A DNA stretch of 64,000 bases from Mobula hypostoma (Eukaryota): NCBI RefSeq assembly GCF_963921235.1, contig NC_086097.1, forward strand, positions 68,388,001 to 68,452,000, written 5' to 3'. Shown piece after piece: positions 1,025-53,401 of the stretch. Under the pieces are notes generated by a model that saw only the letters and a list, made by a program, of their open reading frames with translations, had not been told where the DNA came from and did not search any database. Every line of letters starts with the position of its first letter. Within the stretch, counting starts at the first letter, position 1. The translations under genes were made by a program, and so were the position numbers.

Positions 1025-2255
1025 AGAGACACAAGACTACAGATGTTGGAGCCCCCCTCTAACCAGTCCCCCTCCTACAATCACTTTCCTTCTGTCAGCA
1101 AACTCTTCCACCTGGAAGAACATGTGCTTACTCTTAACAACTTCCCTTTTGACTCCTTTCACTTTCTCCTTATCAACTGTGAAGCCATTTGCATGTGCAT
1201 GGGTCCAGATATACCAGCTACCTGAAGCAATTTCTATCCCAAGTCTGCTCGGGCACCACTCCCCAAATCATTCTCCAGTACATTGATGACTGCATCGGTG
1301 GTGTCTTCTGCACCAGAGGGAAACTTACAAATTTCACTAATTTTGTTACCAACTTCTACCTTACCCTCTAATTCACTTGGTCCATTTCTGACATCTCTCT
1401 TCCCTTTTTTCATCGCACTGTCTCCATCTCAGGAAACACATTATCCACTGACTCCCACAGATACCTAAACTAAACCTCCTTTCACTCTGTCATTCATTGG
1501 ATGTCAATCCTTTTCTCAGTTCCTCTACAGTATTTCTGTCACATCTGTTCTCCGAATGTGGCCCTCCATTCCAGGATATCTGAGATGTTCCCCTTTTACA
1601 AAAAATATATTCCTCCTGCTATTACTGATGTACCACTCACTGGCATCTCCATTTCCTTCACTTCTGTTCTTACCCCATATCCACTCCCTTCTCCACCCCA
1701 GATAGAACAGGGATAAAGCTCCCTAAGTTCTCACCCATCATCTCGCCATCTTACACATCCAAAACACGTCATTCTCAGCAGCTTCTGCCAACCACATCAT
1801 CCCCTCCTTACTTCTCTCTGCGTTTCAAAGGGACCACTCTCTCTGTGATTCCCCGGTGTGCACATACCTCCCCACCCATCCTTCTCTTCCCCTCCCTGGG
1901 CACTTTCCCTTGTGACCGTAGCAGGTATAACTGATGTCCATACACCTCCTTCTTCACCATCATCTAGAGCCCTAGAAAAGCCCCTCCAATGGGGTAGACA
2001 TTTACATGCACATCCATCAGTCTTGTTTATTGCTTTCAGTGCTCAAAACTCAACCTCCTCTAAATCAGTGGCAAGTGGCCACTTTGTTGCGCACTTGGGC
2101 TCTGCCCATCGTGGCTTCTATTTGTTAGCTATTCTAATTCTCCTCTCCATTCCCACACTAATAACCCCATCCTCAGCCTCCTCCACTGCAAGCATGCACA
2201 AGCCTGCACTAAATGCAGACTACAAGAACAACACCTCATAGTCTGCCTAAGTAGC
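1025..2255 (+). mobile_element. Decayed Penelope-like retroelement (RT to GIY-YIG region)
   Basis: ORF 1189-1371 has QYIDDCIG (RT YxDD) then NFVTNFY; downstream resembles the better copy at 33939-35128; short inverted terminal piece (aagactacagatgttgga) at the 5' end. Confidence 0.8.
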
Positions 2256-2264
2256 CTACGGGTA

Positions 2265-5169: not shown

Positions 5170-5265
5170 CTTGAAGAGTCTCATCCTGAAAGGTTGCCTG
5201 TTTATTCCTCTCCACAGATGCTGTCTCACCTGCAGAGTTCCTCCAGCATTTTGTGTGTGTTCTTC
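5170..5265 (+). mobile_element. Penelope terminal fragment with decayed hammerhead motif
   Basis: tgaagagtctcatcctgaaagg...cagatgctg...ctccagcattttgtgtgtgtt parallels 48470-48567. Confidence 0.6.
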
Positions 5266-6878: not shown

Positions 6879-7600
6879 AGGGAGCTGGATATGGGGTAAG
6901 AACAGAAGTGAAGGAAATGGAGATGCCAGTGAGGGGTACATCAGTAATAGCAGGAGGATTATATTTTTTGTAAAAGGAGGACATCTCAGATATCCTGGAA
7001 TGAAGGGCCACATTCCGAGAACACACATGGAAGAGATACTGTAGAGGAACTGAAGAAAAGGAATGACATCCAATGAATGACAGTGTGAAAGGAGGTTTAG
7101 TTTAGGTAGCTGTGGGAGTCAGTGGATAATGTGTCTCCTGAGATGAAAAAAGGGAAGGGAGATGTCAGAAATGGACCAAATGAATTGGAGGATAAGGTAG
7201 AAATTGGTAACAAAATTGATGAAATTTGTAAGTTCCCCACTGGTGCAGAAGACACCACCGATGCAGTCATCAATGTACTGGAGAAGGATTTGGGAGTGGT
7301 GTCTGAGCAGACTTGGGATAGAAACTGCTTCAGGTAGCTGGTATATCTGGACCCATGCACATGCAAATGGCTTCACAGTTGATAAGGAGAAAGTGAGAGG
7401 AGTCAAAAGGGGGGTTGTTAGGTAAGCACACATTCTTCCAGGAAGAAGAGGGTACTGGCAGAGAGAAAGTAGTTATCGGGGGACTACTTATAGAGTGCCT
7501 CCAGCATCTATAGTCTTTTGTCTCTATTCCTCCATAAAGAATTAATTTCTTGTTAAAATTCTGCATCATAGTGATATGGAATACTGCTTATTAAATTTCA
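6878..7600 (-). repeat. Inverted duplicate of 961-1690 (Penelope fragment plus flanking DNA)
   Basis: Colinear reverse-complement match; identical decayed translations (MHVHGSRYTSYLKQFLSQVCS; FLLINCEAICMCMGPDIPAT) in both copies. Confidence 0.9.
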
Positions 7601-38669: not shown

Positions 38670-39425
38670 AAGAGATTGCAGATGCTGGAATCTGGACTCT
38701 AGAGCAAAACATAAAATGCAGGAAAACTCAGCAAGTCAAGCAGAATCTGTGAGGCAAAAGGACATGTTACATTGTGGGTCTAGAACTTGCATCAGGACTG
38801 GGTGGGGAAGTTAGCCAAAGTAAAGAAGTGCAGTTGAGAGGTGGTAAAGAATCTTGTAGGTGGTAGTCAGACAGCAGAACTGTCCCAGGTGGGTCAGCAA
38901 TTCATGGACCAAATGAAGACCAGGAGACCATTCTACAGACTCTTGTGCTCTGTCTGTAATAGCCAACTTTAGATTTTGATTGCATGTCATTTCAACTTTC
39001 CATCCCATTCGCACATCAACTCCCTGCCCATGGCCTTCTCCATTGTCACAATGAAGCCAAATGCAAACTAGAAAACACCTCATATTCTGTATAGGTAACT
39101 TATAACCCAATGGTATGTACAGTGTATTTTCCAATTTCAGGTAACCATCAGCTCCTATGTTTCTTTCTTCCCACACCCATTAGTCATTACAGTTTCTCTC
39201 TTCCTTTTCTCATCTTTCCTTTTCTCCCACTTGACTTCATCTATCCATTATTTCCTCAACACACTCCCTTCCACCATCTAGTTCCACCTATCTCCTACCC
39301 CAGCTCCTGTCCCTTCCTTCATCTAATTCTATAGCCTGGCCACCTTTCCTCTTCCTCTACTCTGGATTGAAGTTCTCAATCTGCAACATTAACACATCTG
39401 GAGGAGTTCTTCCAGCAGTTTACCT
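38670..39425. mobile_element. Old Penelope-like remnant with inverted terminal piece
   Basis: Minus-strand terminus (gattgcagatgctggaatct) then plus-strand decayed GIY-YIG C-terminal region and pyrimidine-rich UTR like 33939-34650. Confidence 0.6.
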
Positions 39426-43899: not shown

Positions 43900-44170
43900 T
43901 TTGAAATCTGCAAATGTTAATTATCATAATGTTGAGTTTGGAAAGCTACAATGTGCCCAACCAAAGTTTGAGGCTCTGTTTTTTGAAGGTTTGTTGATTT
44001 TTGTCAGAATGGTGTGATAGATCAAGTAAGTTAAGATAATGAGGAAAGTACGAGCAATTAAACATTTAGAATCATGCCTACACACTGAAAGAACATTTCT
44101 CTCAATGTGGTCACCTAATCTATCCTTGGTTTCCATGTTGCAGAAAAGATCACATAGAAATAAAATGGTA
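43900..44170 (-). mobile_element. Very decayed Penelope GIY-YIG fragment
   Basis: ETKDRLGDH..VLSVCRHDS parallels GETRCRLGD..EHLHSVHQ of the 34373-34665 copy. Confidence 0.45.
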
Positions 44171-46924
44171 AACAACTACCACAAATATCAATAATTTTCA
44201 CCTTTATCTGCACCTCTACTTAAGCATTTTGCCATCAGAGGAATACACATGTCTGATTTGTCTATAATTTATGATACATTGAGAATTTAATATTCCAGTT
44301 GTGAATTAATTATTTTTGGCTGAAAAGCTTGCAACCTTTTTATGAACTGTAAATGGAACATTGACACAGGTGTTAATGAATTGTTTTATACAACTTTTGT
44401 GTTACAAGTTTCCAGCCATAATTTCCTTTGAAAAGGTGGTGGTGATCTGTCTTCTTAAATTGTGACAACCTTTCCCATTGAGGCATTCTCATAATGCTGT
44501 TGAGGTAAATATTCCAAGGACCTGAAACTTACAATAACAAACAAATGGCATCTATATCCAAGTCAATATAATGTGTGACCAGAATGAGAACCCACAGATG
44601 ATGGCGATTCCATGTGCTTGAAATCTTTGTCCGTTTTTGGCGTGAGAAGCTGCATACTTGGTAGGTGCAGTCAAGATATTTTAGTTGAGTAACTGTGGCG
44701 TACTTTATAAATGATACATACTGTAGCTACTGCATTCATGGCCATGGCACAGTGAATATACAGAACCATTCAACTGGATTGCTATGTCCTGGTTGGTACT
44801 GAGCTTTTGAAATGATATTGGAGCTACACTCATTGAAGTGAGCATTCCGAAAACACACCTGATTTGTCAATTGTAGAAAATTGATCAGATGAAACATTAA
44901 CTTCAAGATACCCAGCCTCTAACCTGCTCTTGCTGAATTTGTGGTCAATGAAATCTCCTTACACCTTGATGGTGGAGGACTCAACAATGACATTCCAAGG
45001 TTCGCTGCTATATAAATCTGCCACTAAAATTTTACTTGAAGCATTTCACTGTATGATCAAAGAATTCTGCATTTCTAATTTTTTGATGGTTTAGGAATAT
45101 TGAAATTAAGTATATTTATTCACACTAGTCAGGAGTCGATGATATTCATTTTCAGAGTATCCTATTCTAAAGCTTAAAAAAAGTGTATAATTTTTGAACA
45201 GAAATCGAGTTAACTATTCTGATGAACCGCATAATCATGAAGTCCTGACTAAATGAACAGTTGGTTAGCAGCTGCTGTCATTTTACATTGCATTAATTCA
45301 AATAATAATGTTAACAGCTTTTTTAAATAGAGGCAATTAGCCAAGATGTTTCTTCAGATGTTGGATCAAGTTGGTTCAATTAGCTGGCAATTAGAAAGAC
45401 CCACTGTAGAATAATTTTCTGAGGACATGCTTTGCAAATATTCACTGTCTTGTTTTCCCATTCATGAAAGTAAAACTAAAATCCTGCAAATAATCTGTTA
45501 GAGGTTAAACGGATACTCTCTTAATTATTAACTCTATCACTTTCTGGAGTTGTCAACTTAACAGTGATATTGGCCATTTTGTTGACACAAAATTCTTACA
45601 AATCTCTGCACCCATCTAAATGCTTTAGCTGAGTGGTCAAATGACACTTTACGTGTTTCAGCAGATACACCTGGACAGAATGTCACAAGTGCTGCTTGAT
45701 TTTAAAATGCTACAACGGAACCACAAAGTATTAACAGAAGACTTTCTTGCAGAGTCTTACTACGTCTTGAATACCTATCCTTTAATCACGCGTCACTGCT
45801 CACGATCCTTGCACTCATTTAGTCTGAAAGCACACCACCAGTACCAGGAGATAGATAATGAGGCAAAGCAATATGCCTCTGGCAGAGAGTCCTAAGGCTT
45901 GGCCTGATAGAAGGTGAGCTGTTATTTAGAAACACTTAAATATATCTGATATTCAAAAGCATTTAGAAAAAGATACCGTGGATATAAATAATAAAAAAAC
46001 TCCTCAAAAATAATTACAACACCAAAATCAATATAAGACATTAAAATAAAATATCAAAGAAATATCTAAACTTACTTTTTCTTTGAAATCTCCAAGCCAG
46101 GAATCAATTCAGATGAATGGGCCATCTTAAGTCATGCCTGGTCTCAATAGCATAAAATTAAAGTGTAGAATTCCTCACTGAAGTTCACTCATTGAAGTTC
46201 AGAGTTTTGCAGTCAGTTGCACTAGTGTAAAATTTAAATGACTGAAAATTAATGGTTCTGATCAGACTTGCTAATTCCAGTCAGCAAAGTTCACCTATTG
46301 TGTTCTCTCTCTCTTCTGAATTCATTGTTCTCCTCTCCTCCCTGAATGTGTCCTTCATGTTCTTGACCACCTACTTAACCTTTAGGAAACACTGAGGATG
46401 ACCACGAGAACTCCAGCATAGGGGGAATTGTGTGAGCAGAGCAATGGTTCTTGAGATCTAGGACTCACAAGCAAAATCTGAAGAAGAGGATCACGAAATC
46501 AAGGAAAATGAAGAAGAATTCAGGCAATTTGAGATGGAGAGAGGTTGTTGCCAATATGGTATCTGAAATCACTGGAGGGACGCAGAGTTGTGGCAGCATT
46601 TTATAAACCTTCCTTCCTTGAATTTACGATTTAGGAACAGGCTACTTGGCACAATAAATTCATACCATTGTTTATGCTGATTAAAACCATCTGTCACCCT
46701 CACCTAACTTAGAAAACTGTAATCCCTTCTGCCTCATAATTTTTTTCAGCTTCCCCTTAAATGCATCGATACTATTTATGTTAATTACTCCTGGTGGTGG
46801 GAAATTCCACTATCTTCTAGGTAAAGTGGCTTTGCATTTGTTTTTGTTCAAATTTTGATTTTTTGATAAGATAAACATTTCAAAAACCTCTGGTTTATCT
46901 CCTCTCCAGAAGAAGAAGCATTCT

Positions 46925-47250
46925 GTGCTATCCTTTTCTCACTATTACCATCAGGCAGGAGGTACAGAAGCCTGAAGACACACACTCAGCGATTCAGGAA
47001 CGGCTTCTTCCTCGCTGCCATCCGATTCCTAAATGGACATTGAACCTGTGAACATTACCTCACTTTTTTAATATATATTATTTCTGTTTTTGTACGATTT
47101 TTAAATCTATTCAATATACGTATACTGTAATTTATTTATTATTAAAAAAACATTTTCTTCTTCTTCTATATTATGTATTGTATTGAACTGCTGCTGCTAA
47201 ATTAACAGATTTCACGGCACATGCCGGTGATAATAAACTTGAGTCTGATT
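46925..47250 (+). mobile_element. Rex1/Babar 3' end
   Basis: ccatcaggcaggaggtacagaagcctgaagacacacactcagcgattcaggaac (LPSGRRYRSLKTHTQRFRN); tail ggtgataataaactt. Confidence 0.85.
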
Positions 47251-47471
47251 CCACTGTGCTGTTTATAACATCTAATAATTTATGTACTTGTTTCTCCTAG
47301 ATCACTCTATAGCTCCATGCCATAAAGATTGTTATATTCTAAGTAAGAAGTGTTCTCCAGAACTTTTTTTTCACCACTGTTATACATCACAATTAACACT
47401 GAAATTCACTTTCTAATTATAGATCTATTTCATCAATATATAAAACTTTGTGGACAAGCTAGCGTACGTTA

Positions 47472-48320
47472 TGAAGATAGGTGAAGGGGTAGGTAGTGTT
47501 GAGGAAACAGGGAGTCTGCAGAAGGTCTTAGATTGGGAGAATGAGCAAAGAAATAGCAGATGGAATATAGTGTAGGGAAGTATATGGTCATACATTTTAG
47601 TAGAAGAAATAAAGATGTCGTCTACTGTCTAAATGGGGAGGAAATTCAAAAGTTAGGGATGCAAAGGGACTTGGGAGACCTCTTTCAGGATTTCCTCAAA
47701 ATTAACTTGGAGTATGAGTCAGTGGTAAGGAAGGCAAATGCAATGTCAACATTCATTTCAAGAGGACTAAAATATAAGAGCAAGGATGTTATGCTGATGC
47801 ATTGCTCAGACCACACTTGGAGTATTGTGAGCAGTTTCGGGCCTTTTATCTAAAAAAAAATGTGCTGGCATTGGAGAGGGATCAGAGGAGGTTCACAAGA
47901 AGGATTCCGGGAACGAAAGGGTTAATTTGATGGCTCTGGGCCCGTTGTCACTGAACTTTAGATGAATCTCACTGAAATCTATCAAATATTGAAAGGCCAA
48001 GACAGAGTGGATGTGGAGTGGACATTTCCTATAGTGGGAGAGGCTAGGACTAGAGACTACAGCCTCAGAATAGAGGGATATCCATTTAGAACAGAGACGA
48101 GGAGGTTTCTTTAACCAGAAGGAATAGAATCTGTGGAATTCATTGCCACAGATGGCTGTGGAGGCCAAGTCATTGGGTTTATCTAGTCTGAGCATCAAAG
48201 ATTATAGGGAGAAAGCAGGAGAATGGGTCATGAATCATAATAAATCAGCCATGATGAAATGGCAATGTAGATTTGATGGGCCGAATAGCCTAATTTTACT
48301 CCTATGTCTTATGGCCTTAT
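47472..48320 (+). mobile_element. 5'-truncated CR1-type LINE
   Basis: QRDLG..VVRKANAM..FISRGLKYKSKDV; tail cctatgtcttatggccttat. Confidence 0.9.
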
Positions 48321-48469
48321 AAATTATCAATAACTTGTAATTTGTTGCAGTTCTCAACATTAATTATATTGTTTATAGTTAACTGTTGTTACTGGCAAAT
48401 CTATGAATTATATATTTTAATCCCGTATTTCATTCTGCTCCTCTGTTGAGCCACCTCCCTACAGTAATG

Positions 48470-48567
48470 TTAGTCCTGACGAAGGGTCTCGGCCTGAAAC
48501 GTCGACTGCGCCTCTTCCTATAGATGCTGCCTGGCCTGCTGCGTTCACCAGCAACTTTGATGTGTGT
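48470..48567 (+). mobile_element. 98-bp Penelope-derived mini-insertion with perfect 14-bp TSD
   Basis: tccctacagtaatg at 48456-48469 and 48568-48581; insert near-identical to the reverse complement of ~33980-34077. Confidence 0.92.
48471..48508 (+). ncRNA. Minimal type I hammerhead ribozyme motif, intact core
   Basis: agtc-CTGACGA-agg(gtctcgg)cct-GAAA-c-GTC-gact: stem I agtc/gact, CUGANGA box, stem II agg/cct, GAAA box, palindromic ACGT stem III, GUC cleavage triplet at 48501-48503. Expression not shown. Confidence 0.8.
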
Positions 48568-49214
48568 TCCCTACAGTAATGCTCACTTTCTGTCTAAGAG
48601 AAAGGAAGCAAGAAGGAAGATGGTAAATCTCATTATTATCCTGTCTATCAGTTCATTTTGTACTCTCAGATAATGCCCTCTTTTCTCATCATTGTAGTTG
48701 CTTTTTCTTAATGTAAAGCATATTAACATAAAATTTTTCCACTTCTGGCAATACATCAGAAGTTCACCCAAAACAGATGTATAGTAAAAGTTGGAGTTCA
48801 ACAATGTGCAACAACTATGTGGGAATGAATAAATGGAAAATATACTATATATGAAAATACATATTGTTAAATGCCATATCATTATGACATACAGCAACAT
48901 CCATGTTTTAATACAAATATTCCAAAAATAATTAATCTAATTTAATTTTCTCAATGCTTGCACAATTTCCAAATCTTGGCAAGTCTATAACAGATATTTT
49001 TGATTATATATTTTGCAAAAGTATAGAAGCAAGTAAATAAAAACATTAAGTTATTTTCTAGATTTCATTTCTAAACATCCGTAAATAAACCACAAACACA
49101 AACGCAGTTGGAGTTTTGAGCCATTGATAACAGAAAATAAATGATTAAAACTGCTTGCACAATCCTGTAAGCTCTATTTTCTTTTAAATACCTATGGGGG
49201 CGGGGAACAACACA

Positions 49215-49630
49215 TTCATCCCTCTAACTCAGTATTTTGTGGGGTCAAGGTTCACCCCAAAGCCTGTGCACAAAAATAGTCTATGATTTCACAGCAGTAT
49301 CATATGATTGCCGCATTGTCTAGGATGTAATTTTTCAAACAAGACATCAAACCATCATACTCCCCTTCAGTGGAAATAAAAGAGGGTAATTACATTATTT
49401 TGAAGAGCAGGAGTTTAAACTCTGGAATTCAGATCAATATTGACCTTCCATTAATTTTCCAATGGAAATTATCTTATAATTATCACACGATTGTTTTTGA
49501 GTTTGTTGTGTGCAAAATGGCTGCTGCCATGTTACAGTACAAGCACTACACTTCAAAAGCACTCATGGCTTGTAATGATATTTAAGATTACCCGAGGTCA
49601 TGAAAGACACAATTTACATGCAAGTAATCT
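49215..49630 (+). mobile_element. Old DeuSINE (SacSINE1/AmnSINE1-like)
   Basis: gtgtgcaaaatggctgc, actacacttcaaaag, gaggtcatgaaag, atgcaagt and tgaagagcaggagtt in consensus order. Confidence 0.7.
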
Positions 49631-50262
49631 TTCCTTAAAAATCGTTAATTGCTTGAGGAAACACATCACTATGAATTCATACTAATATGCAGAATGGATG
49701 CTGAGTAATATGCTAAATAATCAAATTCAGACAATTTAGATGCAATTGGGAATTTTGCCCAACTATTCAGAAGCAACAGTTAAAACCAGGGGAGATTATC
49801 CACACTGAGACTTTGAAGTAGAAACTTCATAAAAACAGTAATAAATGCAACTATTATAAATTATGGTGTTTCTCATTTAAAATCTGACATGATTTCAAAT
49901 CATATTCTATAAGAACAAATCATGTTCTTACTACTAAAATATTGATGATTCCTTTTTCAAAATCACTCACAATGATTCAATTAGTTCTTCAATTAATTAT
50001 GACAGGTAAGTGTACATTGAATGAAATGCCTTTGTAAAATTGTAAGGCAGTTTCAGTGCAATTTCTTGATGCAAAATCATTTCCAAGCAATGACCACTGG
50101 TTAAAAGATATCCACATGGCATTAACAAAAGATTCCATTAATTTTATATATCATGTTTTTGTTAATAGGATAACTGTCAAATATGTCAAAATCAAACAAT
50201 AGGTCTGTAGTACAGCAAAGTACGTATCAGTATAGCTGTTCTAATCTGAACTCAAGTCATAC

Positions 50263-50507
50263 CTTTCACAGATGTATTAGGAGGGGGACCCTCCATCCTT
50301 AAATTCCAGGGAGGGTCACCTAGGTTCGCAAAGTCCCTCATTTTCAGATAACTAATGGTAAGACGAATTATTGATGCCTTATCTAACTGGCTTGTGATGG
50401 CTGCTGGGAGTGGCAGTAGTTTTGCCAATTCGTAGAACTCAAAGTTTTCTTTTCCTCGGCGAGATCGGGCTGCATCTCGAGATTTCTCCTTCCGCAGGGC
50501 TTGTAAA
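50263..50507 (-). CDS. NPAS3: Internal coding exon (bHLH domain) of neuronal PAS domain protein 3; rest of window is intronic
   Basis: Minus strand: pyrimidine tract plus AG acceptor (ctttctctctcag|, AG at 50509-50508) and donor AAG|gtatga (GT at 50262-50261). 245 nt = 1 nt + 81 codons + 1 nt, no stops: [81 protein letters not shown]. Matches the recalled NPAS3 bHLH; the [19 protein letters not shown] tail separates it from SIM1/2, HIF and NPAS1. Confidence 0.95.
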
Positions 50508-53401
50508 CTGAGAGAGAAAGATAAACCAAATTCAATGCAATATTAAAAGAGCAAATTTTTTAAAAATTAACAGCATTAAAATTGTTTGTTTATTATTTAA
50601 ACCAGAAATACAGTTTGATTATTTTAGTATGTCATAAGACATTATCAAATCATTTTTATTGAGAACTATTCTCTAAATACACAAGATTTTCTAGAGGAAA
50701 CACATTTTTTCAAAAGAGGGAAAATGTGTCATTGATCTACAAAATATAATGCAAATTTAATAGGACACGTAGATTTGAAGCTACAATTTCAGATGCTGCA
50801 TTTTATAATCTTAGCAAAGGGACAACCTTGATTGGAACTTGTTCCTTTACCACAAATAGGTAGAAAACTTGAATAAACTTCTCATCGATATTTTCAGTTA
50901 TTTCCTAAAATATTTCAAAATCCTGTTCATTCTGTGGAAAAGGCATGATAAAATAAATTTTAGATTGTATTTAAACATTTAAAAAGGTAAATTCTTTGAA
51001 GCATGGCTTTGAAGGAGTAGACAGGTGTGAAAAGAATACAAAAAAGATGTTCCTAATAGTCGTAGTATAATAATGCACTTATTTGTGATTCATCCAACAT
51101 ATTACTGAATCTTTCTGCTCAGCTATAAAATATTCACAATTACATGAAATAATAGTAATTGATTTAATCATTTACATGTTAATTGAAATATTAGAAACTA
51201 AAGGACAATTAGCCCTCAAAGTCATTCTTGTTTCACTTTGAATAAATGCATAAACTCAGAATATTGATTGAAACAGGAACTTTAATACATCTTATATTGC
51301 TACTCTTCCTGAAAACTAAAGGAAAGTCTTATCTGTATTTTTATATATAGCTATGTTTATGCTCCATAGTTTATCTTTTTTATCTTTTATATCTGATAAA
51401 AGAAATAAATTATGCTGAACTTCTCAATGTTATGAAAGTAATTAAATAAAATTGTCTGATCTTATCTACGTAATCCATTTAAACAAAATTTAAATAGTTG
51501 TTCGTTTTTTTACTGACATAAAAGCATGACAACTGAAGACTATAAGGTATAAGTAGGGATCTCAAAACTGCACAGAATATTATTCTTTTTAGAACCTTTG
51601 ATATTTTATTTTCCCATGTAAGAAACATTTGAAATAAAATTCTTTTGAATTCTAAATACAATTTCCAATGAGAAATATTAAGTCAAAATGTCTAATATTA
51701 TTAATTTATTTTACTCAATTTATAGTTGCGGCCAAAAAAATTATCCTAGAGTTGGTCACTCATAGTATAAGAGATTACAGAGCAGTATAGTGTATACTGA
51801 ATAAAATTACAGTCTTCAAGTTGTATGTCTTCAGTTATAACAGCTTTATTTGTCTATTATATTAATGTTCAAAGTATAACTAAAAATGAAAAGTAAGAAA
51901 GGACAACACCATACTTCGCAAAGAAAAAAAAAGGCACTGAATTCAAGATTGCAAAATCATTTTAAGACTCTTAATGTTCAGACATCATTCAAATGAGCCT
52001 TGAAACCTATTGCGACTACTTAATATTCTAACTTTCTTCCTTAAATATTCTCAGAAATAACTTATGGATTAAAAAATAATGAAACTGAGTTCAATAAATT
52101 GAAATTCCTTTGAACTGAAGTTAAGTTGTGAGTAATGTCATTTATCTTTGTATATTTATCAAAATAGGATAATAAATACACAAAGTTGACAAAATAAATA
52201 ACCCAAACAACTATAAGACACATTTGTGAAGAAATACATCATTGGTAGCTTGCGTTAGGGAGCACCTGTATTCCACTTCTGCAATTTGATCCTAATGATT
52301 CAATATTTCAGAAATGAAGTAGAACCCATATGCATTACTGTATGTATTTTATTTAGTATACATTTACCAACTGTAAATATTATTATTAATACATTTCATT
52401 CATGCAATGTTCCATAATTTAAAAGTTTCTATTTAAAATATTTTTAAATTTTTTATTACTATCATTTTCTGTTTTAGATTATTTGAGTAATGCATCAGAA
52501 AAAAAGCATCAATAATATACAAACAATAAACGTTATCCAAGTAAAATGATTGCTAGGAAGCAAAGGGTGACACAAACCAAAATGTAATTTGTTCCAGAAA
52601 CTCAGCTTGAATTGAGTTGAAAAATTAGAGTTATGAAATGATTTTTGACCTTCATTTTATCCGTGGAGTGAAACATTCTACCACAATAACCAGTTGGATT
52701 AACAGTTATTTTGATGCTAATCTCAAAGAAACCATTTGAGCGACTGTAAACTAAACTGCACGAAATATTCTTTGACACTGTCAAGGAGAAAAAAACTTTG
52801 ACATTCCAGGTTTCTATTTACTTGTTCAAGCAATGGTTGTATATTGAACTTCAGAGAATGAAAAAAAATTATCAATTAAAGTGGTTGAAATGGCTGCAAA
52901 TTATCATTTAAGAATGGAGTAATTGCTTTCATCAAAGGAAGAATAGCTCACCAGAACACATATGTCACTTTAGATTAGTGTTCTCTCTCTTGAAGCCATG
53001 GACGGCACAGCTGATATAAGACTAAATGCCAAGACCAATCAATTGCTTTTGTAGCTCTGCCCTGAGCAGCAGTAAAATAGTCCATTTTCTGGGATCTATG
53101 CTTCATTATTGTAAATGGTATCACCTTGGTAACATAATTCCATTCTTCACAAATTCTGTTTTAAGTACATTGTTGCAACAATGCATTTGAAAACAATATT
53201 GCTACCAGCTTAACACAAATATTAAATGTAATCAGCTGACAGGCGAGTTTAGATCTAGTCCAGAATTCGTACTCTCACTAATTACTTTCCCATATGCACT
53301 AGTTCTTCTAGTTCATTGAATCTTTGAAAATTGCCTCCTTAACCCATTCCCATTAAATGGCAAAGCATTCCAACTTCCCTTTCTGAGGCAGAAGCAGTGT
53401 A

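Follow-up and report, generated by a model that had tools for sequence, protein, structure and literature searches.

A hammerhead-bearing insert near the NPAS3 bHLH exon of Mobula hypostoma appears to be a young, 5'-shortened end of a very abundant Penelope-like element

Single, dispersed minimal hammerhead ribozymes (min-HHRs) of truncated Penelope-like elements (PLEs) in metazoans have already been published (Cervera and de la Pena 2014, PMC4209133). They are of type I, with a short helix I, an extra base between positions 9 and 10.1, a G10.1-pyrimidine pair and a palindromic 15.2-16.2 without loop III, and they are mostly found singly and dispersed or as close pairs on opposite strands. The Neptune and Nematis PLEs (Craig et al. 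2021, PMC8557442) encode RT, a CX2-5CxxC linker and, at the C-terminus, GIY-YIG in one ORF, and the PLEs of that report have partial-tandem pLTRs, inverted 5'-truncated copies, a 30-40-nt tail at one end and heavy 5' truncation. From the report on Poseidon PAc of Anolis carolinensis (Frangieh et al. 2024, PMC11167929), PLE biochemistry comprises nicking and target-primed synthesis that begins at either of two internal start sites, which define the tail, and ribozyme cleavage is unnecessary; both target strands are extended, uncleaved RNA is used, and the length of the product tracks the template's 5' end. The non-LTR retrozymes of metazoans (PMC7761336; Li et al. 2026, 10.64898/2026.07.22.740005) are pLTR-derived, non-coding, carry a type I hammerhead and are mobilised by PLEs; a cartilaginous fish appears in the tables of Li et al. 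2026, where related units may be found. The insert analysed here, which lies in a stretch of 64,000 nucleotides (the window), and its family appear to resemble all of these systems in the respects just named.

The original prediction described a 98-bp insert between identical 14-bp duplications, and we found exactly such an arrangement (Table 1). The edge bases 48469 and 48568 match the element as well, so that 100 of 100 nt match and each junction carries one base of microhomology; each edge is therefore ambiguous by one base, which leaves 98-100 nt for the insert and 14-12 nt for the duplication. The insert matches both pLTRs of a full-length element (L070) without a single difference and keeps six intact CpGs, and together with the perfect duplication this indicates that it is young, in agreement with the recent insertion proposed before. 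The predicted position relative to NPAS3, about 1.7 kb from the bHLH exon, was confirmed at 1.68 kb, and since the exon is on the minus strand, the insert is antisense to the gene. Judged by these sequence matches, the insert is best read as a young, 5'-shortened end of a very abundant PLE, and no separate mobile element. Just upstream of it (window 48000-48330) lies a high-copy repeat resembling a LINE 3' end, with heavy contig coverage.

Table 1. Positions of the insert, its hammerhead and related features in the window
Feature	Position	Strand	Basis
Left target-site duplication copy; last base also element-like	48456..48469	+	Identical words, match to element
5'-truncated PLE copy, pLTR -34 to +64 relative to the hammerhead cut, short (tail-less) 3' end	48470..48567	+	Identity with both pLTRs of L070
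Minimal type I hammerhead, whole motif	48471..48508	+	Features compared with the min-HHR of PMC4209133; predicted
Right target-site duplication copy; first base also element-like	48568..48581	+	Identical words, match to element
NPAS3 bHLH exon (context)	50264..50500	-	Best PDB match NPAS3, E 9.8e-47
Older copy from this PLE family, 1.2 kb, 5'-truncated, 86% identity	33940..35126	-	Sequence comparison

The hammerhead core (48476-48482 and 48496-48499), the GUC triplet (48501-48503), stem I (48472-48475 with 48504-48507) and the predicted cut after 48503 all lie where the original prediction had put them. In the predicted fold, stem II pairs 48484-48487 with 48492-48495 and leaves A48483 unpaired. 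Sister copies carry a U-to-C change at 48495, which keeps this shifted register and breaks the one first proposed, so stem II is best placed one base further along. Position 10.1-11.1 is G-U in the window copy and G-C in sister copies. Stem III is a loopless 4-nt palindrome (48499-48502). The motif thus has the min-HHR traits, namely the conserved core, the extra base after position 9, the G10.1 pair and the palindromic, loopless helix III. Traits of a canonical type I hammerhead are absent: helix III has no loop, and the Rfam hammerhead models, proposed earlier as a check, gave no match at E <= 1 within 44000-53000. The claim of a complete type I hammerhead therefore stands for the type and falls for completeness, as the motif is a minimal one. 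The insert folded no better than shuffled sequences (z +1.17). The palindromic region is predicted to self-pair at -10.3 kcal/mol, and the best monomer fold is predicted to trap the core by pairing it with the triplet. These features suggest a PLE hammerhead of the known kind, minimal and dimer-type, in agreement with the original prediction. Because it is present as a single copy and antisense to NPAS3, the hammerhead of the insert is predicted to be likely inert.

To count copies, we used exact patterns across the 3.48-Gb genome. A 47-mer had 11,393 matches and a 24-mer 52,602, while a 31-mer of the 3' end had 61,462, hence at least that many 3'-end copies are present; reversed controls of the 47-mer and the 31-mer had zero matches. 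Compared with the ~9,000 motifs of Xenopus tropicalis (PMC4209133), the 52,602 exact 24-mers are far more numerous and homogeneous. The full-length element L070 consists of an upstream pLTR, a 37-nt tail, a 1043-codon open frame, a 3' UTR and a second pLTR. Its open frame is similar to RT and GIY-YIG, with weak Pfam scores below the cut-off, and the frame is locally lost within its RT core. The sister copy L062 contains RT motifs, a CX3CxxC linker and GIY-YIG endonuclease motifs, and has 70 RT/GIY-YIG-type relatives among longer proteins, many of them from turtles, amphibians and a sea anemone. By motifs and homologues, the parent element thus has a single ORF with RT plus a C-terminal GIY-YIG (L070, L062), and the pLTRs from partial tandems, the inverted 5' copies and the one-sided tail are those of EN+ PLEs. 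Since the CX2-5CxxC linker marks the Neptune and Nematis PLEs (PMC8557442), the parent appears to be an autonomous Neptune/Nematis-type EN+ PLE, a clade assignment based on linker and ORF features. The suspected link to Penelope was thereby supported, the insert being the pLTR end of an RT/GIY-YIG element.

The parent differs from PAc, which belongs to another clade and whose ORF starts inside the hammerhead (PMC11167929), whereas the first AUG here lies ~138 nt after the cut. The microsatellite bias of the PLEs in PMC8557442 was not apparent in flanks inspected by eye, uncounted. Contigs from four presumed-RNA runs cover the element, and such contigs carry no information on start, strand or level. 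In a look for an empty allele, four runs gave no coverage of the insert's unique flanks. The literature search found no paper on this PLE family; Repbase and Dfam lay outside that search, so the family is possibly already catalogued.

Other traces of such elements are present in the window. The older copy in Table 1 contains the end of the GIY-YIG ORF, the 3' UTR, a decayed hammerhead and the tail, and extends 1.1 kb further upstream than the insert. It is sense to the NPAS3 pre-mRNA, and its hammerhead is predicted to be non-cleaving because the GUC triplet and one base of stem I have been lost. At 5173-5260 (+) lies the end of a related older family (71% identity), and variants resembling it are common in assembled contigs (loose ends at 48508). 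Decayed pieces of distant PLE ORFs occur at 1079-2261 (+), 6892-7277 (-) and 39028-39138 (+), with 65-69% DNA and 34-50% protein identity.

We analysed the ends of copies, given relative to the hammerhead cut, in a first sample of the first 100 copies listed by the 3' 31-mer and a second sample of 68 further copies. The 3' ends of the first sample fell at +64..+73 in 44 copies, at +95..+114 in 55 and at +184 in one, and the 37-nt tail was confined to one of the two arms in 34 of 38 head-to-head pairs. The one-arm tail and the two classes of 3' ends follow the known PLE pattern (PMC8557442, PMC11167929), which is due to two internal RT start sites (PMC11167929). On the 5' side of the first sample, 42 copies had unique flanks, 50 abutted an inverted copy and 8 abutted other sequence of the element. 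Duplications were found in 28/42 non-inverted copies of the first sample (8-17 nt) and only 9/24 of the second. The arms of inverted pairs often stop alike (-37/-37, -53/-60, -526/-516 and -336/-342; L001/L002, L021/L022, L051/L052, L072, L071), which may reflect coupled synthesis or fold-back. The 5' ends extended from -1915 to +31 in the first sample and from -2870 to +19 in the second. Such a continuum over ~3 kb is ordinary truncation and counts against a separate element.

Within this continuum, 93 of the 168 copies start no more than 60 bases ahead of the cut or below it, and 11 start within the 200 bases from -300 to -101; a two-component truncation profile of this kind is not described for PLEs in the part of PMC8557442 drawn on here. 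The six-base bin -35..-30, at stem I, holds 25 of 168 copies (17/100 and 8/68), with 6 and 12 in the neighbouring bins. Inverted junctions make up about half of this pile-up (8/17 in the first sample, 5/8 in the second). Among non-inverted copies, 12 fall in the bin versus 2 and 0 in the six-base bins on either side, with a blunter peak in the second sample (3 at -35..-30, 2 at -41..-36 and 2 at -47..-42). We used a uniform null over -100..+33, which is crude; pair arms and a few duplicated loci are also non-independent. For the non-inverted copies of the first sample, p was about 1e-5 after correction, and in the second sample it was 0.0002 for all and 0.008 for the non-inverted copies. Genome-wide boundary probes, which differ in CpG content and were normalised at one position only, gave 675 matches at -33 (of the 52,602 24-mer copies), 1078 pooled over -37..-34, 126 at -42 and 125 at the cut; the 2218 matches of a probe allowing three consensus letters are no boundary count. 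These results indicate that the start of the insert at stem I, pointed out by the original prediction, is beyond chance. No pile-up of ends at helix I for min-HHRs and no genomic 5'-end pile-up for PAc is reported in the parts of PMC4209133 and PMC11167929 used here, and the literature search found no paper on a pile-up of copy ends at PLE hammerheads.

Nearly identical ends in thousands of copies could be taken as the mark of a discrete, non-autonomous, ribozyme-bearing mini-element, resembling a SINE or the monomer of a non-LTR retrozyme, which is transcribed from short copies and spreads itself. Two tandem arrays speak for it too; each has a hammerhead in every unit and is bounded by a single duplication. 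The first (L323:1971-3239, G000:C2 near 157.816 Mb) repeats its 310-nt unit ~3.8 times within a single 12-nt duplication. The second (L322:1520-2089, G000:C2 near 122.54 Mb) repeats a 262-nt unit of pLTR and ORF leader over twice within a 13-nt duplication. However, the junctions of the arrays differ: that of L323 follows CAG and precedes GT in the parent, in the manner of a GT-AG back-splice, whereas that of L322 is not splice-like. L323 is one locus among 20 with such junctions, and its resemblance to a back-splice could be chance. The window insert lies outside any array, the ORF leader is present in doubly copied templates and absent from solo copies, and the monomer is one loopless hammerhead. 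Moreover, the short copies have no sequence of their own, their 5' ends are continuous, and short copies (62) and long ones (58) carry the variants at +27 and +60 at similar frequencies. We therefore regard a self-spreading mini-element as highly unlikely; a separate element is largely refuted by the 5'-end continuum and the variants common to short and long copies. The discrete non-coding mini-retroelement family of the original prediction thus gives way to the ordinary 3' end of an autonomous PLE, with solo copies that are single rather than tandem.

The two arrays fit the tandem retrozyme definition of Li et al. 2026 (10.64898/2026.07.22.740005), with at least two tandem hammerhead units at L322 and L323. 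The window insert does not; unlike retrozymes, it is a lone unit whose hammerhead has no loop, and its sequence is not distinct from the parent PLE, as the 5' continuum and the common variants leave no consensus unit separate from truncated parents. As regards random 5' boundaries, named earlier as evidence against a discrete family, the outcome is mixed, with a continuum on the one hand and a sharp pile-up at stem I on the other. A further tandem of 327 nt (L181:1774-2771) consists of a short copy from -33 and ~100 nt of unique flank, with an inverted copy adjoining.

Self-cleavage of the template RNA by the ribozyme would be another way to set the 5' ends. Three of the 168 copies start exactly at the cut, all in the first sample (3/100) and one with a clean duplication, and the probe at the cut matched 125 times, compared with 11 for the one at +8; this last probe is the strictest of the set, and its matches mostly resemble one-base deletions. 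By contrast, no copy of the second sample (0/68) and none at pLTR-ORF junctions (0/74) starts at the cut, and of 30 loci found with the cut-site probe, a duplication was detected in only one and 15 were inverted junctions. The main substrate of Anolis Poseidon is uncleaved RNA (PMC11167929). The results showed that the cut is rarely used as a copy boundary, and it is scarcely credible that self-cleavage determines the 5' ends in general, although a minor class of cleaved templates may exist among the copies. For the window insert this origin is ruled out by its own sequence, which keeps the 34 nt upstream of the cut.

The same truncated PLE end could also be produced from a long RNA if RT drops off or folds back after stem I, or is halted at a protein-bound pyrimidine tract and 3' splice-site-like sequence ending at -35. 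A long pyrimidine tract ending in CAG directly precedes -34, and D. virilis Penelope has an intron that terminates at helix I's 5' end (PMC4209133). Stem I microhomology is used by many inverted junctions, and its self-complementarity alone could direct fold-back at such junctions, which are about half of the pile-up. On the other hand, if a stem stalled the enzyme, this would be expected at the 3' arm (about +4), and few copies start there; no upstream exon is shared among 9 non-inverted copies starting at -34..-37 (of 30 loci). Copies with long ORF sequence are also at odds with a barrier. The pLTR-to-ORF junction occurs 384 times in the genome, and we examined 74 junctions in 71 loci. None of 37 long-ORF copies starts at -35..-30, and none of the 25 that reach -29 stops in the stem I bin, versus 25/122 general copies (Fisher p 0.008), which shows that the stem I site does not stop synthesis on all templates. 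A second frequent zone of 5' ends was also observed (L274-L343), in that 9/37 long-ORF copies start in or just before the tail (+49..+97). Since none of the 37 long-ORF copies starts at stem I, they were not copied from a simple full-length mRNA starting there; a second template, longer or circular, must be assumed.

In 20 loci, a pLTR segment follows on a piece of ORF leader that ends somewhere from +135 to +1265. This segment starts at -32 in six loci, at -33 in one and at -34 in one (8/20), and the joint between the two often has 2-14 extra, untemplated bases. When the two tandem arrays and a complex locus were set aside, 17 loci were left, and in 6 of them the starts of the two segments agreed to within one base (permutation p 0.0012). 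These shared starts include +14 and -43, away from stem I, which does not favour a barrier there; in the other 11, starts are not shared. The upstream segment reaches no further than the first in 16/17 loci (p 0.012). The simplest reading is that RT copied one linear RNA, jumped from the 5' end to the 3' end of that RNA and copied it again. R2 RT is a reverse transcriptase with template jumping. The absence of stem I stops in the 25 long-ORF copies and the shared starts of the two segments favour RNA ends over a pause, and a barrier on a long RNA seems to us a doubtful explanation of the pile-up.

We consider that the truncated pLTR copy probably arose when RT, starting at an internal 3' site, ran off a short, uncleaved RNA beginning at stem I. 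Synthesis would be target-primed at the internal 3' start site of the element and would end at the 5' end of RNAs that mostly start at -32/-33. The pile-up would then mark real RNA 5' ends, which most simply would be the start site of the pLTR promoter, and such RNAs may yield about half of all copies. From the 5' end of the RNA, the enzyme could jump to the 3' end and copy again. Against this reading stand the other template that long-ORF copies call for, the large share of inverted junctions in the pile-up and the 11 of 17 two-segment loci whose starts differ. As the source of the short RNAs, a promoter start inside the pLTR is likeliest. The bases at -38..-34 are, we presume, Inr-like. An internal promoter has been shown for D. 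virilis Penelope (PMC2377424).

A more extended account is possible and is offered tentatively. About half of the copies may derive from short RNAs, uncleaved, with stem I at their 5' end and the ORF leader at their 3' end. RT would run off, add untemplated bases, and jump to the 3' end of the same RNA or roll round a back-spliced circle, giving solo inserts of ~100 or 137 nt as well as tandem hammerhead arrays, and transcription or splicing, rather than the ribozyme, would determine the RNA ends. The type of copy is itself known, and the weight lies in the family-wide evidence, which suggests short uncleaved RNAs from stem I as a major template.

Tens of thousands of copies exist, of which the insert is a single dead one, and an effect on NPAS3 is unlikely. 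The family-wide pattern of ends carries more weight, as the role of the PLE hammerhead and the origin of pLTRs and retrozymes are open questions in the literature drawn on here (PMC7761336, PMC11167929). A genome with so many young copies is a record of where templates begin, and if the extended account is true, the tandem arrays would be retrozymes caught at birth.
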